A stretch of DNA of 24,258 nt from a virus. Lineage: Duplodnaviria; Caudoviricetes. The first letter of the stretch is position 1. Every line of letters begins with the position of its first letter. The notes beneath the pieces are model-generated. The model had not been told where the DNA came from. It saw only the letters and a program-made list of their open reading frames with translations, and did no database searches. The position numbers and the translations under genes were made by a program. Below are positions 1,015 to 16,388 of the stretch, one piece after another. The DNA lies in IMG/VR virus record IMGVR_UViG_3300009155_000255, positions 1-24,258 of that record. One strand, written 5' to 3'.

Positions 1015-1241
1015 TCGATGATGTTGTCAATGTTTATGTTATGGTTTTCGAGTTGTTTGTGTATGTATTCCCATATCTGCTCTATAGTAGGTTCTTCGCC
1101 ATAAATAGACTCGCACTTCTTTCTGCCATTATAGATAACCTCAAAAATGAAAGAAGCCATGTCTAATGAGTACATGGCACGCTGAAATGACATACGATCA
1201 TCTCTATCTGATATATCGTATTTTATGTTGACTATTGGCAT
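1011..1241 (-). CDS. Hypothetical protein, 76 aa
   Basis: Translationally coupled to both neighbours (TAATG at 1241, ATGA at 1011-1014). Confidence 0.7.
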   Translation of the reverse strand: MPIVNIKYDISDRDDRMSFQRAMYSLDMASFIFEVIYNGRKKCESIYGEEPTIEQIWEYIHKQLENHNINIDNIIE

Positions 1242-1792
1242 TATCTTTTAATATGCTTAGTTATGATTTTAAGAATAGGCTTTCTGAAAATAAATACTAC
1301 TAACATGACTATCCACCAAAAATTGATATTCCTTTGCTTTTTGTACTTCTCTGCTATCGCTTTTTCCTTCAGGTATTCATCTGTAATCTTTGAGTAATTG
1401 TCATTCAGATCATTGATTTGAGCAGTCAAGGAATCCTTTACAACCTGAATTTTGGCAGTATTCTCAACAGTCCTCGTGATGTACTTATATTTAATGACCG
1501 GCACTTTGTTCTCCTGAAATACTGTAATTATCTCACGCTTTACTGAATCCGATACCTGATGACCTAACAAAGAATCGAGCATTAAATAAAGATGCACAAA
1601 CTCTAATTCATATGCCTGCAAAGTAGCTGAATCGACCACTATAATCGTATCAATAGTTTCTTTAATAGGAAACTTTTCAGCACACTTTTGAGCCACTAAA
1701 ACAGGCTTTTTATCAAAAAATTTATCCAACTTTTTAGGAAATAAGCATGACTGAAATAATACCGCAAATATAAAAATATAGTTAATCTTCAT
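1241..1792 (-). CDS. Unimolecular spanin (u-spanin)-like lipoprotein, 183 aa
   Basis: Start reassigned to ATG 1792, giving MKINYIFIFAVLFQS-C (lipoprotein signal). Coiled-coil region, C-terminal TM helix (FWWIVMLVVFIF) and basic tail; lies next to holin-like genes. Confidence 0.75.
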   Translation of the reverse strand: MKINYIFIFAVLFQSCLFPKKLDKFFDKKPVLVAQKCAEKFPIKETIDTIIVVDSATLQAYELEFVHLYLMLDSLLGHQVSDSVKREIITVFQENKVPVIKYKYITRTVENTAKIQVVKDSLTAQINDLNDNYSKITDEYLKEKAIAEKYKKQRNINFWWIVMLVVFIFRKPILKIITKHIKR

Positions 1793-2018
1793 TTTTATGG
1801 TTTTTATCCTGTTTTGTACTTCCAAAATAAAAGCCTACCACACCAGCAAGCGCACCACCATATATAAACCCTGCAACGATGTTAACTATATCGTGATTCT
1901 GTTCAGGAATAGGGCTCACTTGCAAAAGGTACACTAAGCCAAAACAACCTAAAACAATGATAATAGCAAGGCTGTTTCTAATATCTGTCTTCGTTAATCG
2001 TTTTAACCATTCTGGCAT
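1782..2018 (-). CDS. Holin-like membrane protein, 2 TM helices
   Basis: Two hydrophobic segments, GFYFGS motif, charged C-terminus; upstream of the spanin. Confidence 0.65.
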   Translation of the reverse strand: MPEWLKRLTKTDIRNSLAIIIVLGCFGLVYLLQVSPIPEQNHDIVNIVAGFIYGGALAGVVGFYFGSTKQDKNHKNED

Positions 2019-2184: not shown

Positions 2185-2524
2185 ATTCTATTGCTTTTTC
2201 TACGTGATCTTTTTCTATTGTATTTAATAACCATGCTAATGCTTTGCCTGTATAAGTCAAATTGTTAAACCGTTTATTAACGCCCAAAACGTGAGAGATT
2301 GTCACGTCTTCATTACCAAACTTGTAACCGTTCTTTTTAATCATTGTGTAATTAAACAGATCTGCGCAAATGACATTGCCTAATTGATCAATTGACTTTG
2401 CAATGGTGAAAAGGTAGCTGTTAAGTGATCGGGATGATGTAACTATTAACTGAAATGCGAAGCCTACAGGCAATAAAATTATTGACAGACACAAAGCAAT
2501 TAATAGTAATATAAATCCTCTCAT
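2168..2524 (-). CDS. Membrane-anchored phage protein of unknown function
   Basis: Long N-terminal hydrophobic segment, then SIDQLGN...FGNEDVTIS, a motif I recall from phage lysis regions; ATGA overlap upstream. Confidence 0.7.
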   Translation of the reverse strand: MRGFILLLIALCLSIILLPVGFAFQLIVTSSRSLNSYLFTIAKSIDQLGNVICADLFNYTMIKKNGYKFGNEDVTISHVLGVNKRFNNLTYTGKALAWLLNTIEKDHVEKAIEYERKD

Positions 2525-2940
2525 ATCAATTCTATATCAGGAAACCATCCTGCATCTTTCATTTGTTGGTAAGTAAATACAGTAGTATCCTGTGGTATTA
2601 TATACTGAAACGGAAAACTTTGTTGTGATTCAATAAACGCTGTAAGTCCGTCTTTTTCCGCTTGAGATAACTCAGGAAACAAAGCGATAAGATTAGTAAG
2701 ATTATTTTCGGGATGTACAATTATGTTATAATCTAATTGCACACGCAAAGCCGTATCTACTAACTCCGCATAAGCGGGGTCTTGTGTAGGGTGCTTCACC
2801 CATCCAAACATATAAGCCGTAACATCATTCGGGTTACGGATTGCTGGCGGCCTGCTAATTGCCCATAATTCGTAACTTATAGCCTCAGCCCTTTGGGCGC
2901 TTGTTAATCCTCCCTGCGGAAGCACTTTAATAAATGACAT
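2521..2940 (-). CDS. Hypothetical protein, possible fibre-associated or assembly factor
   Basis: 139-aa ORF overlapping both neighbours, directly after the lectin-like gene; no signal peptide. Confidence 0.65.
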   Translation of the reverse strand: MSFIKVLPQGGLTSAQRAEAISYELWAISRPPAIRNPNDVTAYMFGWVKHPTQDPAYAELVDTALRVQLDYNIIVHPENNLTNLIALFPELSQAEKDGLTAFIESQQSFPFQYIIPQDTTVFTYQQMKDAGWFPDIELI

Positions 2941-3796
2941 AATAAGAATTTATGTTTGTTTGTATTCCATTTCGGTTTGATGATTGATCTGAATTCCATG
3001 CGACAACCTCCTGAACTTCGCCCTGAAAATCAATTGCGGACGCATTTTGTCTGCCGCCTAATCTATCTACTGTTATAGACGAAGCAAAAGCACCGGTATT
3101 TGTTTCCGAACTGCCATCCTTAGCTACAAATAAACTACTGCTTCTTTGTGAAAACCACCCTAAATGCTGATTTAAATCTTCGCCTGTAATGCTTCTTACA
3201 TTTGTTCCGTCAAATCCTCCTAACCCATTAACCCCTGCAAAGCTACCGTTCCAAAAAAATCCATTATTTGCATTTGCATAACTATAATTAATTGTTTGCT
3301 GAACATTTACTTTTGCTACCATTACGTGATGTGTTATGGTATATGTTGAAGCAGAAGTTAAAACATTCACACTTTGAAAATTTACACAAGGTTTACCGTT
3401 AGTTCTTTTTACTGTACCATTAAATACTATTTCTGGCTGTGTTGCCGCCGTTGCGTTTGATTTATTTCTACCATTTCCTGATTGATCATACCAAATTGTC
3501 ACTCTCCCATTATTAACACCAACAAAAGTTTTTAACGAAGCAGTATCTAAATCACCGCTTGAAGTAAAACCAATATCCTGTTCGCTATTATCGTTTGACC
3601 TCCTTACTCTTATTGCGCTTCCTGTGTATGCAGTTCTAAGTTTACGCAAAGAATAAGCGGCCACCGCTCCTGTGTAAGTATCTAACAATAAATTAGTAGC
3701 AACGGGAAAAGGCCGGTAATTAGGATGCGCCTTTATAATCATTTGAGCATCCGCACGTAAACTGAAAAAAAGTAATATTACAAAAGTAAATCTCAT
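2927..3796 (-). CDS. Signal-peptide-bearing concanavalin A/LamG-like lectin protein (arabinofuranosidase-B-catalytic-domain-like N-terminus); candidate receptor-binding protein
   Basis: AAYSLRKLRTAYTGSAIRVRRSNDN..DIGF and VTIWYDQSGNGR motifs; LamG-like ending FQGEVQEVVAWN; signal peptide MRFTFVILLFFSLRADA|Q. Confidence 0.75.
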   Translation of the reverse strand: MRFTFVILLFFSLRADAQMIIKAHPNYRPFPVATNLLLDTYTGAVAAYSLRKLRTAYTGSAIRVRRSNDNSEQDIGFTSSGDLDTASLKTFVGVNNGRVTIWYDQSGNGRNKSNATAATQPEIVFNGTVKRTNGKPCVNFQSVNVLTSASTYTITHHVMVAKVNVQQTINYSYANANNGFFWNGSFAGVNGLGGFDGTNVRSITGEDLNQHLGWFSQRSSSLFVAKDGSSETNTGAFASSITVDRLGGRQNASAIDFQGEVQEVVAWNSDQSSNRNGIQTNINSYYVIY

Positions 3797-5160
3797 ATTC
3801 TTTTTTTATAACCTAATAATGTCAAAGTAAAATAAGTTGGCTTTGTTGCCACCGCTGATGTGCGAACAAATACCCATACATTCGGCGGAATTTTATTATT
3901 AGTAAACGATGTTACGTTTGTAGCACCTATGGTTCCTGTCACACTTGTACCGCCACTCACCAAAATAGTAGCACCGGCTGTAATATTTAAACTATCGTTC
4001 CAATAAACCTCTGTTGTAATGCTTGGCGAAGTACCTAACACACCAGCCCTCATTTGCGTTATTATCAAAGTATCGCTCCCTGCATTGTAAAAGCTACCAT
4101 ACACAGCCGATGTGCTAAATGCAAGTGTATCCCCTGCCGCACCGCTACCCGCACCAAAAACAGCGATAGGAACAGTATCGAGCTGAAGCTGATAAGTAGC
4201 ATTTGCGACATTAGACCTCAAATAAGGACTAAGCATAGTCGCTGTATCACTGATATTCACCTTTGCATTATTCTGAGAAATAGTAGCATAAGTAGCAGTT
4301 GCTATATTTGATCGCAAATAAGGACTTAACATAGCAGATGTATCAATTACATTTAATGGAGTATAACCCAACGCAGTCGCTACACTTTTATTTTCCCAAA
4401 CTTGAGAAGATGCCGTATAAGCTAATATTTGATTATTTGTTTCAGATGTTATCTTGACATTATGTAACTCATCTAATTCTACCCCGTTTTGTGGCTTTAC
4501 ATATATTAATCCATTACCTGCGTTTGCTCTTTCTACAACACCTACAAATACACTATGGTAAGGGGCTTGTGGCTTATTTTTAGTAAAGCCTCCAGCAACA
4601 CTATCTAACCATAGAATATCCCCCGCTGTATATGCGCTTAAATTTATACCGCTAACCTGACCCTGCGTTGTAATCCATCCCTTTTGACCCGCCGCAATAT
4701 TTGCCCTTACTATACCCAATGTTTTAGAACTAAAAGTATCAGATGTATTTTTTGCTAATTTTACCGATGCCCTGTCACCCTGCGCGCCAAAAATATAAAC
4801 CACCTGACCTTTTGTAATCGTAAATGCCTCTGCATTTGTTACATAAGCCGTTACTACTGTTGCCGTATCGCTACCGCCACCAATTGCACCCACTACATAA
4901 ACACTTGCGCCTTTGCTATATTTTAAGGTATCAGATTGAATATAAATACTGTCCAATGCCCCATCTACCGCAATGCTATCTAATAACTGTAATGTCCCAT
5001 AAACAGTATTCTGCATCCTATAATTAGTAAATGATTCAACCGCACTATTTTTTACGTATCTTAAAACGTAATTTTTAGCAGAATCTACAGACGGGAATCT
5101 ATTTTGTGCAAATGATGTGAAAGCTAATAAAACAAAGATAATTATTAAAAAATGCTTCAT
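3793..5160 (-). CDS. Signal-peptide-bearing tail-fibre/adhesin-like protein rich in D-(S/T)-x sequons
   Basis: Signal peptide MKHFLIIIFVLLAFTSFA|Q; central beta-rich module (ITKGQVVYI...TLGIV...) followed by LDELHNVKI...QILAY...WENK and TALGYTP fibre-like motifs; tandem repeat; Gly/Thr/Ser/Ala-rich. Confidence 0.72.
   Translation of the reverse strand: MKHFLIIIFVLLAFTSFAQNRFPSVDSAKNYVLRYVKNSAVESFTNYRMQNTVYGTLQLLDSIAVDGALDSIYIQSDTLKYSKGASVYVVGAIGGGSDTATVVTAYVTNAEAFTITKGQVVYIFGAQGDRASVKLAKNTSDTFSSKTLGIVRANIAAGQKGWITTQGQVSGINLSAYTAGDILWLDSVAGGFTKNKPQAPYHSVFVGVVERANAGNGLIYVKPQNGVELDELHNVKITSETNNQILAYTASSQVWENKSVATALGYTPLNVIDTSAMLSPYLRSNIATATYATISQNNAKVNISDTATMLSPYLRSNVANATYQLQLDTVPIAVFGAGSGAAGDTLAFSTSAVYGSFYNAGSDTLIITQMRAGVLGTSPSITTEVYWNDSLNITAGATILVSGGTSVTGTIGATNVTSFTNNKIPPNVWVFVRTSAVATKPTYFTLTLLGYKKRI
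4192..4350 (-). repeat. Two-copy 96-bp (32-aa) period repeat encoding DT(S/A)xMLSPYLRSNxAxATY
   Basis: AAATAAGGACT occurs at 4220-4230 and 4316-4326; peptides IDTSAMLSPYLRSNIATATY and SDTATMLSPYLRSNVANATY. Confidence 0.85.
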
Positions 5161-5209
5161 ATTTCAAAATTAATGCCCAAAATAGGGCTTATTTTTTTAA
5201 ATGTCAACT
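5161..5209 (-). promoter_or_regulatory. Putative late promoter for the fibre/lysis operon
   Basis: AGTTGACA (5209-5202), 29 bp, TAATTTTG (5172-5165), 4 bp, ATG. TAnnTTTG is the Bacteroidota -7 element. Confidence 0.65.
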
Positions 5210-5845
5210 CTAAGGAATATAATATATTTTAACAGTTTTCCCAGATGCAAATGCTGAATCGAAAGTAATAACCCCTAATCCATACCCATTGTTTGGTATA
5301 AATTCATAAGTATCTGGGGCGTAATATTCACCGTCAACAAATACCATTAAAATAGTAGCGTTTAAAAGGCTTGCAGATGAATATGTTATGGAAAAATTAG
5401 TAGTGCTATACTCTAAATATGTCGGCTCATTTTCTGTATTTTTTAGGTCGTTTGTGCTATACAACGGCCCATCTGCATTTATCGTAATATCATATTTAGC
5501 CAACTCCCCCGATGTGCCGGTATTAGTTGCACTTGAAACGATGCCAATACCGAAATAAAAATCAGATCCGTAAACTGCTTTAACCGCTACCTTTTTACCT
5601 TTTATCAGATTATCGTTAAAATGCAATGGATTGACCTTTGTAGCTTCGTCAACTGTAATAACCCCGCTTGCCTGTATTTTCCAGTCATAACTGCCATATT
5701 CCCTATTTGTAGCCCTGCCGCTTCCCTTTGTTGTAGTTATTATCTCATTAGACGTCAGATTAAGGGTAAATGTTTCCTCACATCCTATTGGATATAAATT
5801 TTCATAAGCGTATAAAACAAGTTCGTTTCCGTTAAGATTTGCCAT
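5210..5845 (-). CDS. Second tail-tube-like protein with extra C-terminal beta domain
   Basis: N-terminus LNGNELVL...IGCEETFTLNLTSNEIITTTKGSG...GSYDWKIQASG...YFGIGIVSS...GELAKYDITINADGPL fits the siphophage tail tube pattern; about 70-aa C-terminal extension. Confidence 0.6.
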   Translation of the reverse strand: MANLNGNELVLYAYENLYPIGCEETFTLNLTSNEIITTTKGSGRATNREYGSYDWKIQASGVITVDEATKVNPLHFNDNLIKGKKVAVKAVYGSDFYFGIGIVSSATNTGTSGELAKYDITINADGPLYSTNDLKNTENEPTYLEYSTTNFSITYSSASLLNATILMVFVDGEYYAPDTYEFIPNNGYGLGVITFDSAFASGKTVKIYYIP

Positions 5846-5847
5846 AA

Positions 5848-6189
5848 TTATGGATATTCAAATGATTGATCAAATTCACTACCGAATAATTGAAAAGAAA
5901 TATATTGAGAAGATGCGTAAATGCTAACAATATCCCCCTGAGCCATTGTAACCCCTTTCAACCTTTGAGCCGAACAGTTACCATAAACTGTCATGTTATA
6001 TTCTAAATAATCAGCAGTTGCAGGCGTTTCAGTACGATAAATTGCTATTCTAATGGTAGCGTCTAATGTATCTCTATTGCAAATATTTAAAAAAGATACT
6101 ACCGTCCCTTTATCTGTAGGTACTGTGTACAAAGTGGTTAATATGGTTGCACTTGGCGAAACCTTACCTAAAACTTTAATCACCTCCAT
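5848..6189 (-). CDS. Small beta-rich putative structural protein
   Basis: TTLYTVP...VVSFLNICN...TIRIAI...GDIVSI pattern resembles small phage tail-region proteins; position in the tail module. Confidence 0.6.
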   Translation of the reverse strand: MEVIKVLGKVSPSATILTTLYTVPTDKGTVVSFLNICNRDTLDATIRIAIYRTETPATADYLEYNMTVYGNCSAQRLKGVTMAQGDIVSIYASSQYISFQLFGSEFDQSFEYP

Positions 6190-6361: not shown

Positions 6362-8493
6362 TACGAATAATTATTAAATCTTCTCCTTTTGTTTCTTTTT
6401 AATAAACTCATTATAATACCCATAGTGCCATATTTCCAGTCTATTGGCGTTCGTGGCTCTTTAATCACATCATCATAATTTTGCGCCTTTACATTTAAAT
6501 ATCTAAATGCTTCATTTCCTAATTGGGTAAAATCGTTATTATTAGATGTGTTTCTAAGTTCAACCATTGTAAATTCTGCCGATTCATTTCGTACATCAAT
6601 ATTTAATGTAGTAATCATAAACTCTTTATCTGAAATAGCAGAAAACTCAACTGTATTTAACGGTGAAATTAATCTACTTCCCTGATATAAATCATATAAT
6701 CTACCCTCCATTCTTTGAAAATTACGATACATCGCCCGCCAATATCCCCTTGCATTATACTTAGCAAAGTTTACGGCTGTATTGTCGTTTGCGCTGTAAT
6801 ATTTCCAGTTATTTAATTGCGTATAATTGCTTGCAAGTATTGCGCCCTGTGTGCCTATATTATCTGATTTGCTTAAAAATATCTCATTATCGTATAAGTT
6901 TTTTAATTCGCTAACCTGACTATTTTTATATTCGTACCCGTCAACCTCAAGCATTTCGTTAAAATATGTCCTAATATCTATAGACATATCTTTATAATGC
7001 ACTTCATTATTAGCCGTTCTGCTATGCCCTATACTTGTAAACTCAATTGTTAATTTACCATTTTCTGGGAAAGGCTGTGCCTGTATTTCATAGTCTTTCC
7101 AAAACCTACGATCTTCAGCACTTGACCATGCAACCCCTACCCTACGCCACAAATTATACGACCATGTTCCTGTAGAAGATAAAGTATAAAAATTACCGTC
7201 TGCCAATTCTAATTTGACATATACAAACTGATTTGTATTAACAAAGCCTGTATTTTTCTCCCTTGTAGAATAAGATAAATTTAATACATCATTTGCATTT
7301 ACCCAATATTCTGTAGTTTGTTTTGCATTATCATTATTTGGGTTAGTATCTTCATAAAACAATAGATACCTTGTTAGCTCTGCATTAGTTGTATTATCTA
7401 CCTCTACTCCTACATATGCTGTACTTCCTGTGGATGTTGGATTTTCTCCGTTTTGCCAATATAAAATGCTATAAACTTGCCTTTGTAGTGTTATGGCTGT
7501 AATTACATTATTAACTATTATAAACCTTGTAATGTTTCCAGACAAAGGACTGCTAAATGTACCGTCTAATAAATCCCAATTCCTAAAAAATATGGGAGGC
7601 ATTTTAAAACTATACTTTATTACAGTTTCTTTAAATTCCTTTTCCCAACTTGTTAAGGCATCCGCATTTATTAGCTTAGTAACCTTATCCAAACCAATAT
7701 CTATGCTGAAATCCTGATTTGTGACCGTTTGCTGAAATGTTCCTGATGAATTACGCCTATTTCCGTCAAGATCCGCCGCTATTCTGTCATTAGTCTGTAA
7801 AATATACCATGCCCCCCTTGCCTGAAACAAAGTACATCCATATGCCTGCATGATCTTTGACAATACGGTATAGCAGTCGTCAAATTCACGTGGGCCACGA
7901 ATGAATGTATGTGAAGTTACATGAGAATAATAGAAAGCGTCAAAATCGCCGTTTGTAGCCCTCTGAGATGCGCTAGCAGGGTACATATTGATATAACTCC
8001 AATAATCTAACCCCAATTCTGTTTTATCTAAGGCATAAGCTATAAAATCCTTAACCCTATAAATGCCCCATACCTCATTACCTGATAAATCCGCTAATTC
8101 TATGGATTTGATAAGAGATAAGCCATCCGATGCGGATAATTCTATTTCGTTTGTAGTATCTAAAAATTGCTCAGTAATATAATCATTATCCAGCCACCCT
8201 ACCCACTCAACATTATTATTTACATACACTTTTACCTTGTATTGTGTATCGGATGTAATCAGTAAATCGTCCGTATTGATATTATTAGATATAACCTTTA
8301 TCCTTAGCCTGCTTTCTCTGATACCACACATTTTGTCAAATTCCCCGTCTGGGTAGGATATTTCCAACGGCATATCACCCGATGCTGTTAGGTTAGTTAT
8401 GCTACCGGCAAAGGCATCTTCTTCTATATCTATTTTAATAGATCTACCCTTTACAGTATCAAACTCTATTCTATATTTTGTGTTATATGCCAT
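6361..8493 (-). CDS. Tail tip/hub protein (putative), 710 aa
   Basis: Immediately follows the tape measure gene (TAATG overlap); W.GWL and IELSASDGLSLIK motifs typical of post-TMP proteins; beta-rich. Confidence 0.65.
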   Translation of the reverse strand: MAYNTKYRIEFDTVKGRSIKIDIEEDAFAGSITNLTASGDMPLEISYPDGEFDKMCGIRESRLRIKVISNNINTDDLLITSDTQYKVKVYVNNNVEWVGWLDNDYITEQFLDTTNEIELSASDGLSLIKSIELADLSGNEVWGIYRVKDFIAYALDKTELGLDYWSYINMYPASASQRATNGDFDAFYYSHVTSHTFIRGPREFDDCYTVLSKIMQAYGCTLFQARGAWYILQTNDRIAADLDGNRRNSSGTFQQTVTNQDFSIDIGLDKVTKLINADALTSWEKEFKETVIKYSFKMPPIFFRNWDLLDGTFSSPLSGNITRFIIVNNVITAITLQRQVYSILYWQNGENPTSTGSTAYVGVEVDNTTNAELTRYLLFYEDTNPNNDNAKQTTEYWVNANDVLNLSYSTREKNTGFVNTNQFVYVKLELADGNFYTLSSTGTWSYNLWRRVGVAWSSAEDRRFWKDYEIQAQPFPENGKLTIEFTSIGHSRTANNEVHYKDMSIDIRTYFNEMLEVDGYEYKNSQVSELKNLYDNEIFLSKSDNIGTQGAILASNYTQLNNWKYYSANDNTAVNFAKYNARGYWRAMYRNFQRMEGRLYDLYQGSRLISPLNTVEFSAISDKEFMITTLNIDVRNESAEFTMVELRNTSNNNDFTQLGNEAFRYLNVKAQNYDDVIKEPRTPIDWKYGTMGIIMSLLKRNKRRRFNNYS

Positions 8494-10361
8494 TATCTAC
8501 CCCTACTTAGTAAAAAAGAAAATACATCACCACGCATAGTTGCAAGACCCGTACCGCTTACCGCTGCCCCTGCCGCTGGGCCACCTATTGCAGATGTAAC
8601 CGCCTTTAAAATTAAGGATTTTATTACGGCTTTTCCTAATTCTATAACTAATTGTTTTACGCTATTTTGCAATACCTCAAAAGGATCTTCGCCTTTGACT
8701 ACCGCTTCAAATACGCTTTCCAATGCAGGACTTAAAAATCCAGATATAGTATTTGCTAACTCTTCATTTTTTTTCTGCAAATCAGATAAAGCCTTTTGTT
8801 GCGCTTTGTAGTTTTCTAAAAATAGCTTGCCTGTTTCATTAAGAGCCTTTATTACTTTCTTTTGTGTTTCGCCTAATGCTTTTTCTGTATAGCTTCCGAT
8901 ATTGTTAGTATATTCCTGTACGCCTGCATTTATTTCGGCTAATCTTTTATCTCTTACAAACTTATCAAATGCACTTTGGAACTGATCAAAATCGGCTTTA
9001 ACTCTTATCCATGCGGCACTTGTTTCTTTTACTCCAGCTAAATAAAGGGTTTTTAATGTTTCGCCCGCTAACTCTAATCTTTTCTTTGTTCCGTCTATTT
9101 GCCTGTTTTGCTCATCCCAATTAATGCCTTTTAATTGCTCATTATATTGCTTTAATAAATCAACAATTTCATTTGTGGCTTTTGAAGCAGACTTTTGCGC
9201 CTTTTCATTACCCAACGCTAAGGCATTTGTAGCTGGCAATTGCCTTTCATATTCGGCTCTTAACTTTTGATTATCTGCTAAAATCTGAGATGCTATATCC
9301 CTACCCTCTTTTTGTATCTGATTCCTTCTGCTTTCATTATTTTCTATTTCTGCGGAAAATGCTTCAATAACTTGGTAGTTAGGAATTGTAGCCGTTAATG
9401 CCTTATTATACTTAGCCCTAAGTTCTACTAACTTATTTTCTATTTCTGAAGACTTTTGCAGGGCATTATTTCTATTATCAAATAGCTTTACGTTATTTTC
9501 CGCAATTCTATTTATAAGTAACTCCGCTGTAGCCCTTCCCTCTATCGCTTTAATGTATTCCCTTGTAATGCGTGCGCCTTCCTGTGTGGCTATATTTTGA
9601 GCCGTTAATTTACCAATGGTATCGGGAAGTATTTTGTTAAGTCTTTCTAATGCCTGCGCCCTTTCATTTTCGGTATTATTAGCACTTTTTGCAATATTTA
9701 CTAATGCCTCAAATTCTACCCTTTGCTTAGTTATTGTAGTAACTAACTGATCTGTCCCCTGTTTTAATTTATCTTGATCTTCTTTAACTTTTTGCGCACT
9801 TGCACCCCATCTACTAAAACCTAATTGTGCAAATTGCAAAGCAGATGTAATTAACGAAACGGCAATTATTAAACCTCCCCCACCTGTTAATGATGCTGTT
9901 AATGCAGATAATGCCGCTTTACCAGATCCTGTTTCTTTTCTTAATGCTATAAATGATTGTACTAACGGATCTATGTTATTGGCAATACCTATTAATCCAA
10001 AAGGCGCATCCGATGCAACCCTACTAAAATTTGTTAAGGCTACAGTAGCTTGGTTTGTGCCTTGTGTTGTATTACTATTATTTCTGTTTAATATTAATAA
10101 TGAATTATTTAAGACATTTACTTCTTTTGATGTCTTACTAATTAACGACCCTAATCTCTGATATTGTTCTGTAGATAAATTTGGGTTTGCGGCTAACCTT
10201 TGTAACCTTTCCAGTTGGTTATTTAAAATATTAATGCTCTTTAACCCTAATGTTTCTGTGGCATTACTTGCATTAATTAATTCACTATTGAATTTATTTA
10301 TGTTAGTAATCGCTTGCTGTACGTCAGCAGATATTTTAATTTGTAATCCTTCCGCCGCCAT
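8493..10361 (-). CDS. Tape measure protein, 622 aa
   Basis: Follows the chaperone pair; starts LQIKISAD; Ala/Leu/Gln-rich helical sequence; SDAPFGLIGIANNI motif and hydrophobic segments. Confidence 0.85.
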   Translation of the reverse strand: MAAEGLQIKISADVQQAITNINKFNSELINASNATETLGLKSINILNNQLERLQRLAANPNLSTEQYQRLGSLISKTSKEVNVLNNSLLILNRNNSNTTQGTNQATVALTNFSRVASDAPFGLIGIANNIDPLVQSFIALRKETGSGKAALSALTASLTGGGGLIIAVSLITSALQFAQLGFSRWGASAQKVKEDQDKLKQGTDQLVTTITKQRVEFEALVNIAKSANNTENERAQALERLNKILPDTIGKLTAQNIATQEGARITREYIKAIEGRATAELLINRIAENNVKLFDNRNNALQKSSEIENKLVELRAKYNKALTATIPNYQVIEAFSAEIENNESRRNQIQKEGRDIASQILADNQKLRAEYERQLPATNALALGNEKAQKSASKATNEIVDLLKQYNEQLKGINWDEQNRQIDGTKKRLELAGETLKTLYLAGVKETSAAWIRVKADFDQFQSAFDKFVRDKRLAEINAGVQEYTNNIGSYTEKALGETQKKVIKALNETGKLFLENYKAQQKALSDLQKKNEELANTISGFLSPALESVFEAVVKGEDPFEVLQNSVKQLVIELGKAVIKSLILKAVTSAIGGPAAGAAVSGTGLATMRGDVFSFLLSRGR

Positions 10362-10995: not shown

Positions 10996-11418
10996 TTATG
11001 GGGTTATATCTACTGTTCCTGTTAATTGGAAAGAAGCAGTAAAAGTTACAGCACCTTCCGCAGGCGAAGTTATACCAAACTCAGTAATATATCCACTACC
11101 TTGAACATAAAAATTTGTTCCTGAACCTTCAGGATCTTCATATTTAATATCTAACAAACTGTTTCCCTTAAACCATGAAAGCATATTTTCAACACTAACT
11201 TGCCCTGCACTTGGGGCTGTTTCAGCTACACCATCAATCGCAAAAGTGATCGTTGGGGCGGCTACAGATGTGATTGTGTTACATTTTGTTACCGCTGTAG
11301 TTACAGAAGCAGATCCTGACAGGCTACTTGTTGTTTCACAAACTACGTTTAAATATGCGCCTGTAGTTCCGCTTTCTCTTAATTGTAAAGTGACCGATGT
11401 ACCTTGAATTGTTGCCAT
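10996..11418 (-). CDS. Major tail tube protein
   Basis: IQGTSVTL...VCETTSSLS...TKC...YVQGSGYITEFGITSPAEGAVTFTASFQLTG pattern; canonical position. Confidence 0.8.
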   Translation of the reverse strand: MATIQGTSVTLQLRESGTTGAYLNVVCETTSSLSGSASVTTAVTKCNTITSVAAPTITFAIDGVAETAPSAGQVSVENMLSWFKGNSLLDIKYEDPEGSGTNFYVQGSGYITEFGITSPAEGAVTFTASFQLTGTVDITP

Positions 11419-13276: not shown

Positions 13277-13326
13277 TTTATCAAAATTAATCTTACAATA
13301 AGGCTAAAAAATATAGTTTGTCAACT
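13277..13326 (-). promoter_or_regulatory. Putative late promoter for the neck/tail operon
   Basis: AGTTGACA (13326-13319), 29 bp, TAATTTTG (13289-13282), 5 bp, ATG. Confidence 0.65.
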
Positions 13327-13347: not shown

Positions 13348-13402
13348 TTCTCATATAGTTTAGGTTTTATGTTCCCCGCTTGTTTCTACAGGCGGGTTTT
13401 TT
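13348..13402 (+). ncRNA. Candidate small RNA (~55 nt) transcribed opposite to the late genes
   Basis: Plus-strand TAATTTTG at 13337-13344, followed within about 30 nt by a plus-oriented terminator. The 5' end is approximate. Confidence 0.35.
13375..13402 (+). terminator. Intrinsic terminator oriented on the plus strand
   Basis: CCCGCTTGT-TTCT-ACAGGCGGG-TTTTTT. The U-tract and the U.G wobble pair only work in plus-strand RNA. Confidence 0.7.
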
Positions 13403-14339
13403 ATTTACAGATAAAATCTTCTAATTCCTTAAACTTAGGTTTTAACTGATCTGCCCGCTTTAATCCCTTTTTGCTCCATTTTTTATAATAGACATCATCC
13501 GTCATTAACTTATTTATTTCAGATGCCCATTTTTCGGTATCTTTTCTATTTATACAAATACCCGCATCCCCTACGTTTTCAAGTAATCCCGCTGTAGGAT
13601 TATATATTACAGGGATGCCGTTTATCATCCCTTCACCTGCAACCATGCCCCAAGATTCGTAATGGCTTGGCACTAATAACACCTTTGTCACTTTATATAT
13701 TTCACGAATATCTGGCGTATTTGGTAATATTTTAACGTTTGGCAGATTTTCAATATGCTGGCCATCATAACTACCCCTTACCCCTAAAAATTGAAATTGT
13801 GGCAACCTTTTTGCCATTGCATAAAAATATCTTGAGCCCTTGTTTTGGTTTAAATTAATCAAAGTAATATATTTCCTTTCCTTATCATCTGTTTTGACCC
13901 ATTCATCAATCGGAGGTGGAAAAACAATAGAAGGCCATTTATAGCCCAATGATAATTTGCACCATTCAGAATTATAAATAACATTAACAGGAATAGGCGA
14001 ATCTTTTACACTTGGGTAGGATGTATCGTTATGTACTATATGAACAAATGGTTTATTATACTTTTGGCAAGTATGGGTAGTCCATTTATTGTAATCTAAA
14101 TGTGAAATAACGACATCCGCCCATGTAAATAGTTTATCTATAATGTATTCATCTGGGGGGAATACATCTACCCCCTCATATGTGTACATCTCAGTAATTT
14201 TATACTGATTAGCTTGATGAAGCAATATTTTAACTTCATGGCCTTGACTTATTAAATGCCTATTAATATTGCGTGCCATTGCCTCCGCCCCACTTCCATG
14301 TTTTGGGAAGTACAAATGTATAGACCATAGAATTTTCAT
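13401..14339 (-). CDS. Glycosyltransferase, GT4 family (GT-B fold)
   Basis: Start at 14339 (MKILWSIH, ATGA overlap); GSGAE, GHEVKI, NKG and LVPSHYESWGMVAGEGMINGIPVI (E-x7-E). Confidence 0.88.
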   Translation of the reverse strand: MKILWSIHLYFPKHGSGAEAMARNINRHLISQGHEVKILLHQANQYKITEMYTYEGVDVFPPDEYIIDKLFTWADVVISHLDYNKWTTHTCQKYNKPFVHIVHNDTSYPSVKDSPIPVNVIYNSEWCKLSLGYKWPSIVFPPPIDEWVKTDDKERKYITLINLNQNKGSRYFYAMAKRLPQFQFLGVRGSYDGQHIENLPNVKILPNTPDIREIYKVTKVLLVPSHYESWGMVAGEGMINGIPVIYNPTAGLLENVGDAGICINRKDTEKWASEINKLMTDDVYYKKWSKKGLKRADQLKPKFKELEDFICK

Positions 14340-15091
14340 ATAACTATCCAATTTTGGTGATAAATGTCTTTTGCTGAAATATCTACATGAGGCCCAAACC
14401 ATTTAGATGGGGCAATTACTTTCTTATCGGGATGATCTGCTAATATAGCCGCCATTGCCGAAAAGCTACTATTTGCTATTATAAAATGTTTGCATCGTTT
14501 CATTAGCCTAAAATCGTCTATGTAATTACCAGATAAGTATAAAGCCTCAATCCCTACCCTCTTTTTTGCAAACTCTAAATCATCTGAAAAAACGATATAC
14601 TGTGTATCTGCCGGCATTAATTTAAATGCCTCTTTGTAATATTCCTCTGAGCATCTGGGATGATAAGCATTTGGATCGTCTAAATAATCACCCGCCCTAA
14701 CATGAATAGCACAAAAGTTATTTTGCTTAGGCTCATTTACCATAGTAAAATAATGCCTTATTTCATCCATGCAATGTTCAAAGAATTTAGGGCTTTGTAG
14801 ATGGGCATCTATATTCCAATCACAATTTGACAGATCGACATCTTTATATCCCCAAAAATACCCGTAACTATTTATATGTCTGCCGTCTGGCAAAATAGGT
14901 AACTTATTTACAAAAAACCTATCCATAGTATCTGCAAAATCCCCAAACAAGGCGTTATCTCTATTCACCCATTTAGGAAAGGCAAATGATGTATTATTAC
15001 GCTTTGCAATACCTATAACGCCTGCAATTGTCCATAACTGATTTCCAAACCTACCTAACCCGCCGTTTCCTATGCTTAAAGCCGTTACCAT
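14336..15091 (-). CDS. Alpha-1,2-fucosyltransferase-like glycosyltransferase, GT11
   Basis: GRFGNQL, QSPKFF, AIHVRAGDY, VFSDD, CKHFIIANSSFS and VIAPSKWF motifs. Confidence 0.9.
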   Translation of the reverse strand: MVTALSIGNGGLGRFGNQLWTIAGVIGIAKRNNTSFAFPKWVNRDNALFGDFADTMDRFFVNKLPILPDGRHINSYGYFWGYKDVDLSNCDWNIDAHLQSPKFFEHCMDEIRHYFTMVNEPKQNNFCAIHVRAGDYLDDPNAYHPRCSEEYYKEAFKLMPADTQYIVFSDDLEFAKKRVGIEALYLSGNYIDDFRLMKRCKHFIIANSSFSAMAAILADHPDKKVIAPSKWFGPHVDISAKDIYHQNWIVI

Positions 15092-15819
15092 TCGTTATTA
15101 CGTTTTCTATGATGATTAAATATTACAGGGTAATTATCTTCAGCAAATTGCGGATGCTTATCATAAATAAATTGACCGCCGTTATAATGCGCCGCCCACC
15201 AATGTAATTTAATTGCGTATTTATAAGCCAAACAGGTTAAGATAGCCTGATCATGCCTATGCTCTATAAAATGTAAATAATTTTGTGTATTGCTTTGACT
15301 GTCATCTATAAACCCGTTTACTTGGCATAATTTAAGCCATTCCCTAACAAACATTCTTGCCTGTAAAGTGTTTTTAATTATAATAACAGATGCCTGCACT
15401 TGCCTTGCCTCCATGTCGTACGAAAGTTCCCAATTCGGTAAAATAAAATCCATTACATCCATTTTACACCAATCTAAATGCCTGTAGTTATTACCGAATA
15501 GCCATACATCAGAATCCATCCGCTCTATTATCAGTTTTAGACTATTTACAAACTCCACCCCCGCATCGCTATAAACAAATATGTCATTTTCAGGTAGTTC
15601 GCTTAATTTCCTTTCTATAATGTACGGCTTCCATAGCCAATAACCCGCACCCCTTTCTTTGCTTAACACATCATGATTCATCCGTTTAAATTCCTCAGAA
15701 TAGCATGATTGATTATACATAATAGATATGTCCGCCCCGTTATTTAACGCACTATTGCGGCATACAATTCCGCTTTGTGACATATTTTGGTCGCTAAATG
15801 TGATATGGGTAATATTCAT
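15085..15819 (-). CDS. Putative GT-A-fold nucleotide-sugar transferase
   Basis: GAGYWLWKPYII, VYSDAG and EHRHDQAIL motifs; sits within the GT cluster. Exact family uncertain. Confidence 0.65.
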   Translation of the reverse strand: MNITHITFSDQNMSQSGIVCRNSALNNGADISIMYNQSCYSEEFKRMNHDVLSKERGAGYWLWKPYIIERKLSELPENDIFVYSDAGVEFVNSLKLIIERMDSDVWLFGNNYRHLDWCKMDVMDFILPNWELSYDMEARQVQASVIIIKNTLQARMFVREWLKLCQVNGFIDDSQSNTQNYLHFIEHRHDQAILTCLAYKYAIKLHWWAAHYNGGQFIYDKHPQFAEDNYPVIFNHHRKRNNEW

Positions 15820-16376
15820 ATTAACTTACTTTGTGTATGCAATATCCCGTAATCGGTATCCGTCTGCCATAAATCACTATACCCCGCCCTTTGAGTAGTA
15901 ATGAAAGGCTTACAAATATAACACTTTAATTCAGGCTGTATTTTGCGCAAAAGATAATCATCATAAATCCCGTCTTTATATGGATCGTATCTATCGTAAA
16001 TATACTGTGCCGCCTTTTCGGTATAAATAACAGAATGTGTCGTGTGCGTTTGTTTACACCTCCACCAATGATCTTGAATATGTTTTAATGGGGCTAATAC
16101 GTGACCCGATAAATACAATATATCGTAATCATCTGGGGCTGTTTCTAATACGTATTTAAGCATATTATTTACAAACAATACATCATCTTCAAATACCAAT
16201 GTATTTTCTGTTATTGATTTTAAAATAGCCTTTTGCGATAAATTAAAAGATGTAAAACGATCTTCATGCTTAATCGCTAAAAATCTATCTACTTCTAAAT
16301 TCTGTTCTTTAAATTGCTTTTGTGCAAGTTCCCATCTATCGTTTCGGCTTGCAAGGCTTAGGCAAATGGCTTTCAT
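15816..16376 (-). CDS. Glycosyltransferase, GT25-like
   Basis: ICLSLASRNDRW, RFLAI, LVFEDDV, YDILYL and Q..GYSD motifs. Confidence 0.8.
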   Translation of the reverse strand: MKAICLSLASRNDRWELAQKQFKEQNLEVDRFLAIKHEDRFTSFNLSQKAILKSITENTLVFEDDVLFVNNMLKYVLETAPDDYDILYLSGHVLAPLKHIQDHWWRCKQTHTTHSVIYTEKAAQYIYDRYDPYKDGIYDDYLLRKIQPELKCYICKPFITTQRAGYSDLWQTDTDYGILHTQSKLI

Positions 16377-16388
16377 ATTTCAAATATA
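16377..16388 (-). promoter_or_regulatory. Putative -7 promoter element for the glycosyltransferase cassette
   Basis: TATATTTG-AAAT-ATG directly after the capsid terminator; no AGTTGACA box upstream. Confidence 0.5.

Follow-up and report, generated by a model that had tools for sequence, protein, structure and literature searches.

Tail fibres of tailed phages are normally made in the cytoplasm without signal peptides, and tailed phages are taught to finish their particles there. A gene departing from this picture is found in a 24,258-nucleotide stretch of viral DNA (IMG/VR record IMGVR_UViG_3300009155_000255; Duplodnaviria, Caudoviricetes), the whole of which is called the window below. Its open reading frame (ORF) at 3793..5160, on the minus strand like all window features given here, encodes a mosaic fibre of 455 amino acids (aa), which has a conserved leader, unlike the leaderless fibre of textbooks, and is rich in Asp-Ser/Thr sequons. 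An earlier note on this DNA had proposed that the phage exports the protein for glycosylation by the host and then either adds it to virions or uses it as a free or surface factor.

The closest described systems each share some of these properties. In Bacteroidota, a D-S/T-hydrophobic motif is modified by O-glycosylation on non-cytoplasmic proteins, with S common and F uncommon at the third position, and the portion of the source drawn on here reports that the motifs of exported proteins are generally nearly fully substituted (PMC12871550). A Gln follows the signal peptidase I (SPI) cleavage site in Bacteroidetes, the so-called Q-rule (PMC5837995, PMC10653852). Both the motif and the Gln are shared by the window fibre, and in the relevant parts of these papers they are described for bacterial proteins. 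In the MAT proteins of Bdellovibrio bacteriovorus, a signal peptide precedes a trimeric fibre that is mosaic and phage-like and has variable tips, some of them bearing S74 domains (PMC10769870). However, MAT fibres are chromosomal adhesins on the predator cell and not virion parts, and the main text of that paper nowhere contains “glycosyl”; their signal peptide is followed by a beta-rich domain that is conserved and about 130 aa long, whereas the window fibre has an N-terminal module (N-module) of about 75 aa and is a phage gene product. Virion proteins of the haloarchaeal virus HRPV-1 carry the host surface glycan (PMC10384203), but this virus is lipid-enveloped, not tailed. In mycobacteriophages, the capsid and tail tube are glycosylated by the phages' own glycosyltransferases, which in cluster O are encoded by tandem genes, and the part of the review concerned mentions no export step (PMC11600133 citing Freeman 2023). 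Searches of open-licence literature brought up no account of a tailed-phage fibre that is exported or glycosylated by its host.

The product of 3793..5160 begins with MK, a hydrophobic core and SFA|Q, which is predicted to be a Sec signal peptide of the SPI type (residues 1–18; 5107..5160) with cleavage between A18 and Q19. By the Gln at +1 after a small residue, the fibre would fit a Q-rule substrate. A custom heuristic (basic n-region, hydrophobic core, small residue then Q) recognizes the leader in 67 of the 69 fibre ORFs from 79 IMG/VR loci, the two misses beginning inside the gene, and in 90/92 relatives sharing the N-module of the window fibre. Alignments of 41 and 30 sequences show Q19 without exception, though the letters of the leader diverge, and a leader is kept in front of two or more different N-modules. 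Two codons upstream of the ATG stands an in-frame TGA. With GTG and TTG starts left aside, 10 of the 44 loci have no Met between the cleavage site and the central, cement-like domain. Searches of the fibre with Pfam and NCBIfam found neither a sorting domain of the type IX secretion system (T9SS) nor a lipobox, the protein has no Cys, and no later membrane segment was found.

The protein has 17 Asp, 13 of which are followed by Ser/Thr. Eleven match the strict sequon D-[ST]-[AILVMT] (DSA26, DSI61, DSI70, DTL77, DTA98, DSV186, DTA305, DTV328, DTL344, DTL363, and DSL389) and two are near-matches (DTF141 and DTS273), while a broadened motif fits all 13 sites. Against the 11 strict sequons, 1.62 are expected, and none of 20,000 composition shuffles reaches 11 (about seven times chance). 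Among the 34 ORFs tested, clear enrichment is found only in the fibre and in a lipoprotein-type, spanin-like ORF of the lysis block (1241..1825), which serves as an internal positive control with five sequons in ten Asp vs. 0.39 expected; ORF 2521–2940 is borderline (p 0.049). The family of the spanin-like ORF has a lipobox in 43/43 members and an observed-to-expected ratio (O/E) of 8.3. Thus, the sequon counts of the earlier note were exactly right and its signal-peptide-type N-terminus was recovered, while its two internal controls held in part: the enrichment in its “u-spanin” is real, but this label rests on a lipobox, a coil, and a C-terminal hydrophobic segment in a protein that matched no spanin family, and the absence of sequons among the 20 Asp of the capsid is correct but a weak control with 1.4 expected. 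From these features, export of the fibre through Sec appears nearly certain and, given export, O-glycosylation by the host is very probable.

Relatives with the central domain of the fibre include leaderless fibres of Pseudomonas phage Rollin, Nitrincola 1M3-16 (orf113), Acinetobacter phage phiAC-1 (gp44), and thousands of uncultured clusters, whose central domains are 30–60% identical to that of the window and which share its mosaic architecture and structural-module position. Unlike the window fibre, they have no leader, no sequon excess as a group outside the domain, and N-terminal modules such as Mtd_N. For a comparison within this family of 17,265 clusters, the best 150 and the query (151 in total) were taken, 18 incomplete or ambiguous ones were dropped, and 133 were scored. 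Outside the shared domain, the strict motif occurs at an O/E of 4.2 in 51 leader-bearing homologues (509 vs. 121) and 0.91 in 82 leaderless ones (222 vs. 244), as the earlier note had anticipated for homologues of this domain. Half of the Asp precede Ser/Thr in the former and a fifth in the latter, with similar Ser+Thr contents (0.23 vs. 0.25). In the leader-bearing set, the control motifs (E-, N-, D[AG], and reversed) stay at 0.7–1.1, [ST]D-hydrophobic reaches 1.5, D[ST]-polar is depleted (0.48), and the third position follows the preference of the host. The fibre family as a whole has an O/E of 4.0–4.4, and the shared central domain has an O/E of 2.1 even in leaderless proteins. Leader-bearing sequences form two main groups inside the leaderless fibres plus one distant outlier. 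In stretches of 40 genomes from a Bacteroidota phylum sample, none of 75 leader-bearing proteins reaches the density of the window fibre, 2.4 sites per 100 residues, which sets it apart from the exported host proteins sampled; O/E values are 1.2 for 57 SPI-Q proteins and 1.85 for 18 lipoproteins.

The distant outlier comes from a prophage in genome G048, unrelated to the window phage, which encodes a leader-bearing cement-domain fibre 35% identical to that of the window with seven sequons vs. 2.1 expected, and a leader-bearing 941-aa neighbour with 18 vs. 3.7. Both sequon-rich genes are part of the structural module, at a position downstream of terminase and portal. As a separate observation, this prophage on contig C14 (L100:185-15290) has five genes with Q-type leaders in or after the structural module, of which two are sequon-rich and one has a LamG domain. 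An 830-aa protein of G048 was considered as a P22 gp10-like nozzle, which was not borne out, and the podovirus reading of the prophage rests on gene sizes and order.

The fibre is composed of the leader, an N-module (residues 19–92), a central domain (about 99–226), a stalk of variable length, and a C-terminal domain (327–455). The N-module (4885..5106), with a helix, beta hairpins, and four sequons, is a candidate virion anchor from its co-occurrence with virion type (see below). The central domain (4483..4866) is modelled well (predicted local distance difference test, pLDDT, 88) as a capsid-cement-like beta-tulip; its fold matches are HFTV1 8qsy (Z 11.1; root-mean-square deviation 3.1, 112 aligned), Pam3 8hdt (Z 10.9), and the base of the phi29 gp8.5 head fibre, 6qyy (Z 6.9). 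PF09956 (Phage_cement_2) matches the isolated domain at E 3.2e-4 and 21.5 bits, below its curated cut-off of 24, and the alignment of the central domain found no PDB sequence match. Residues 227–326 (4183..4482), delimited by alignment and a low-confidence model, are a fibre repeat and a length-variable stalk holding a duplicated DT(S/A)xMLSPYLRSN repeat. The C-terminal jelly-roll (3796..4182), a candidate adhesive tip with four sequons, has as its best, tied matches the tail fibre of Agrobacterium phage 7-7-1 (Z 9.3) and PBSX XepA (Z 9.2), a common fold, and is swapped for other tips in relatives. The full-length model is poor (pLDDT 48.7) and a viral fold search with it was uninformative; the whole protein has no match in Pfam, PHROGs, or NCBIfam, and ESM Atlas gave only sub-0.9 leads for it, one of them a cluster with PF09956 in 12% of members. 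Leaderless homologues of the central domain are annotated as tail fibres or tail proteins, some with Mtd_N, S74, or collagen domains. These models and family relations support the fibre-like identity that had been suggested for the product.

Although capsid cement proteins (PF09956; HFTV1, Pam3, and phi29 gp8.5) have the beta-tulip fold in common with the central domain, the window domain is internal, lies below the Pfam cut-off, is dispensable, and occurs also in bacterial exported proteins. Because bacterial exported proteins share the domain and 13/92 relatives with the window N-module do without it, the predicted cement fold is more plausibly seen as a trimer knob than as evidence that the fibre binds capsids. 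By analogy with the cement fold, and with the S74 chaperone domain that ends some leader-bearing relatives (P0190 and P0191), the fibre may be a homotrimer.

The fibre gene is not alone but stands first in a cassette in which two or three genes bear leaders. The second gene (2927..3796), which overlaps the fibre stop codon, starts with a leader ending in ADA|Q, contains an ArabFuran-catal/lectin-like domain (PF09206, E 6.9e-9), and matches phrog_10356 (virion structural protein); it has a leader in 37/37 loci and few sequons (O/E 1.4). The third gene (2521..2940, 139 aa) is leaderless here, while 21/36 relatives carry a Q-type leader and 15, otherwise alike, carry none; it has no family match in Pfam, PHROGs, NCBIfam, or ESM Atlas. 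On the other side of the fibre lies a tail-tube-like protein of 211 aa with an extra C-terminal beta domain (5210..5845; PF06199, phrog_1407). The cassette occurs in two different phage types, which have the cement domain and tip in common. The window N-module is found with the 211-aa upstream gene in 11/11 loci, and a different N-module with a 233-aa upstream gene in 66/66, two loci being cut. Such tracking of the N-module with the virion type is the pattern of an anchored receptor-binding fibre, an indirect indication that linkage alone could also give. In a leaderless protein, P0207, the N-domain of the upstream 233-aa structural-module protein is fused to a cement fibre (E 2e-15), and in G004 a leaderless homologue of phrog_10356 occupies the slot of the second gene. 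The ORF lists of the complete records G001 and G003 show no other long fibre gene, though hub proteins of 670–710 aa could carry a binding domain. Among 92 matches (250–797 aa), no leaderless protein with the window N-module was seen, barring one incomplete record and one with a non-Q hydrophobic leader. A docking domain common to the C-termini of the 211-aa and 233-aa proteins was not found (no match by hidden Markov models; hhalign probability 4.7%), and a complex prediction with three N-modules (residues 19–95) and the 211-aa protein scored 0.00, which is evidence neither way. In the second phage type (L013:7055-7756, 7683-9056, and similar loci), the leader of the fibre starts in another frame over the 3′ end of the 233-aa gene. 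The small C-terminal domain of this 233-aa protein seems to occur also as a stand-alone ORF of about 94 aa beside a glycosyltransferase-like gene.

Cultured phages with comparable cassettes are found on Cellulophaga. Phage phi10:1 (KC821618) has the late gene order of the window and a homologous tape measure, and its gp091–094, all with A/G|Q leaders, are virion proteins by tandem mass spectrometry (MS/MS) according to GenBank; gp095 is also leader-bearing, and the leaders of gp091–095 end in A/G/S|Q. In phi19:1 (KC821607), gp101–104 are likewise noted as virion proteins by MS/MS and are leader-bearing, gp104 without Q. Leaders are also found in gp084, gp086, and gp087 of phi13:2 and gp31–34 of Ingeline. 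These cassettes share with the window Sec-type leaders, mostly A/G/S|Q, and a position before lysis-type genes, with eight genes MS/MS-noted in GenBank. Unlike the window fibre, however, their leader-bearing proteins show no detectable homology to it, apart from a stretch of Ingeline gp31 that matches three distant relatives. The body of gp093 is leaderless in phi14:2 and phi17:2, and the fibres of 11b, P12024S, and phi18:1 have no leader. The main text of PMC8776804 makes no use of the term “signal peptide”, and the GenBank record notes covered do not mention leaders.

The best reading of these results, held with somewhat more belief than doubt, is that the fibre is exported by Sec, O-glycosylated by the host, and docked on virions at lysis. 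The leader would first be cleaved before Q19, as the Q-rule suggests, probably leaving pyroglutamate. A host transferase would then modify up to 11–13 D-S/T sites on the N-module, stalk, and tip, in keeping with the biology of the likely host. The chain would trimerise with the predicted cement-fold domain as a knob and wait in the periplasm, given that neither a lipobox nor a T9SS sorting domain nor a further membrane segment was seen. After the action of holin and endolysin, the type-specific N-module would bind a tail or neck part of the virion. In the weakest step, the jelly-roll tip and the co-exported lectin-like protein might act in adsorption, with glycans stiffening or shielding the stalk. 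Attachment to the virion, taken by itself, is probable from the linkage to virion type and the cultured analogues. Of the two end points left open earlier, the virion is accordingly better supported than a free or surface factor, by the N-module tracking, the P0207 fusion, and the Cellulophaga MS/MS analogues. The idea of export for the sake of glycosylation fares less evenly: both patterns are seen in this fibre, but they are separable, since the Cellulophaga leader-bearing virion proteins are sequon-poor and the second gene of the cassette is little enriched.

Several observations weigh against the docking of a glycosylated fibre. Cleavage, glycans, and virion presence of the fibre family are all deduced from sequence. 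The central domain is missing from 13/92 relatives, as mentioned above, a single recombination breakpoint could tie the N-module to the virion type by mere linkage, and the fibre gene also abuts the lysis block. The MS/MS evidence consists of GenBank notes on different proteins of Cellulophaga phages. In the cultured phages, 12 partly related leader-bearing proteins are sequon-poor (17 vs. 35.8 expected, O/E 0.47), compared with 29 vs. 36.7 in leaderless ones; export therefore has a broader reach than glycosylation, and only particular lineages are heavily loaded with sequons. The hypothesis that the two main leader-bearing groups arose once survives the approximately unbiased test (p-AU 0.39, 54 hand-picked rows), so the tiny p-value of the leader/sequon contrast overstates independence, and the contrast may rest on one to three lineages only. 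The leaderless fibre of Pseudomonas phage Rollin also has 11 sequons, but with 60 Asp in 836 aa. Leader-bearing clusters with the cement domain are found amid housekeeping-looking genes in two bacterial genomes (G1167 and G1232), without sequon excess; since these clusters do not look like phage, the domain is no proof of virion binding. Finally, a close locus of 4 kb (L080) lies inside a bin titled Proteobacteria, an assignment that we read, without proof, as mis-binning.

As a separate observation, the Cellulophaga cassettes at L109:31848-38879, L113:5455-11592, L112:7336-13315, and L116:4041-10449 seem to avoid the sequon, possibly a strategy opposite to that of the window phage. The bacterial clusters of G1167 and G1232 lie at L162:10900-15187, L163:6367-18544, L164, and L165. 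In layout they resemble MAT fibres, and they are possibly a bacterial adhesin system and a possible source of the leader.

The strongest rival, a minority reading but one with an appreciable chance, is that the exported and glycosylated fibre does not become part of the virion at all and binds receptor glycans as a factor in the periplasm or after release, for example to block superinfection or to keep progeny off debris. The gene does adjoin lysis genes and may have its own upstream element, the virions of the Cellulophaga MS/MS could have carried along abundant free protein, and bacteria export phage-like fibres as adhesins, as described for Bdellovibrio MAT in the part of the paper used here (PMC10769870), with similar clusters in G1167 and G1232. 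On the other hand, the N-module follows the virion type, fused and leaderless forms fill the same slot, neither a membrane anchor nor a T9SS domain was found in the fibre, and G001 and G003 list no other long fibre gene that would serve the virion, the 670–710 aa hubs again excepted. Moreover, no tyrosine integrase was found in any of five related records, four of them at least 90% complete, in a search aimed at tyrosine integrase alone.

It is unlikely that the fibre is exported while its D-S/T excess is structural (helix caps or repeat turns) or inherited from one ancestor, most sites being free of glycans. The stalk repeats do multiply the same motif, the shared domain is enriched even in leaderless proteins, and a single origin is compatible with the tree. 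But outside the shared domain the enrichment extends over N-modules, stalks, and tips that are unrelated to one another, and leaderless fibres with a comparable Ser+Thr content do not show it; its third position follows the host preference, the spanin-like control is likewise enriched, and near-full substitution of such motifs is generally reported for exported proteins in the part of PMC12871550 relied on here.

A trifle less likely still is that the glycan is provided or remodelled by glycosyltransferases of the phage itself, acting either on virion proteins directly or on the lipid-linked precursor of the host, which would afterwards be transferred to the fibre. The late operon holds, between capsid and head-tail adaptor (13401..16376), a tandem of four genes without leaders (GT4, GT11, unassigned, and weak GT25 by family matches); the block is conserved in G001, and the second phage type has one glycosyltransferase-like gene before its capsid genes. 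Tandem glycosyltransferase genes modify both the capsid and the tail tube in cluster O mycobacteriophages, according to the relevant part of PMC11600133, and by this analogy the four genes are candidates for virion glycosylation. However, they are leaderless and not beside the fibre, their number differs between the two phage types while the sequon density does not, and the capsid and tube would be simpler targets.

Least credible of all is that the hydrophobic N-terminus serves as an anchor without being cleaved, or is vestigial, with a fibre assembled in the cytoplasm or bound to the membrane: the leader call does rest on a custom rule, the third gene exists with and without a leader (21/36), and the leader of the second phage type overlaps the end of the upstream gene, but the small residue and Q are kept across divergent leaders, the sequon selection implies exposure to a periplasmic enzyme, and an in-frame stop lies just upstream of the window ATG.

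If export, host glycosylation, and docking at lysis hold, periplasmic fibre maturation would add a compartment to tailed-phage assembly. The O-glycosylation system of Bacteroidota, which is poorly understood, would gain a viral client and a selectable readout, and the annotation and expression of receptor-binding proteins of such phages would be affected. A wider and rather doubtful proposal is that many Bacteroidota tailed phages build virions in two compartments, heads and tails in the cytoplasm and the fibres for host recognition in the periplasm. Some lineages might saturate their fibres with a species-specific host O-glycan, perhaps re-tailored by phage glycosyltransferases, so that the virion would wear the glycan of its last host as an imprint, not genetic in nature, that bears on stability, adsorption, or host range, while others, such as Cellulophaga phages, would export but avoid the motif. 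To these questions the window locus adds a family-wide contrast of leader and sequon, a host baseline, the link of N-module and virion type, and a cultured siphophage with matching gene order.

By ORF and family matches, the window covers late genes of a siphophage of the HK97 type. They run in the order of terminase, portal, protease, capsid, a block of four (three of them glycosyltransferase-like), connectors, tail tube, and tape measure, followed by a 710-aa hub-like protein, two small genes, the second tube-like gene, the fibre, its two followers, and a lysis-type block. A metallophosphoesterase (31-1014) is conserved within the lysis block of both phage types. The tail-tube-like paralogues (PF06199) lie at 5210-5845 and 10996-11418, only the product of the former being noted with the extra C-terminal beta domain, and phi10:1 likewise has two such paralogues. 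A 113-aa leaderless protein (5848..6189), with a weak likeness to the N-terminus of a tail-fibre family (phrog_693, E 8e-4, residues 6–70), is an alternative adaptor candidate. Matches of the tape measure are Cellulophaga and Flavobacterium phages only (6/6 records), and among cultured phages the portal is best matched by Flavobacterium 11b and Cellulophaga phi18:x at 24–26%; a Bacteroidota host is likely from these low-identity matches. Searches of bacterial genomes gave two loci in a species collection, 2/401 in the phylum of G006, 1/401 in its class, and 0/401 in the phylum of G007, the last without a positive control; with such few, scattered matches the host is not fixed.

A TAnnTTTG element (5165..5172) ends 4 nt before the ATG of the fibre gene and is found before the fibre in 6/6 distinct window-type loci. 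Within the window, the element ends 4–5 nt before an ATG at three intergenic gaps, preceding the fibre (5165-5172), the adaptor (13282-13289), and the glycosyltransferase cassette (16381-16388). We take it to match the consensus of the Bacteroidetes -7 element, and these copies are possible late promoters of the host type with very short leaders, or an initiation signal.

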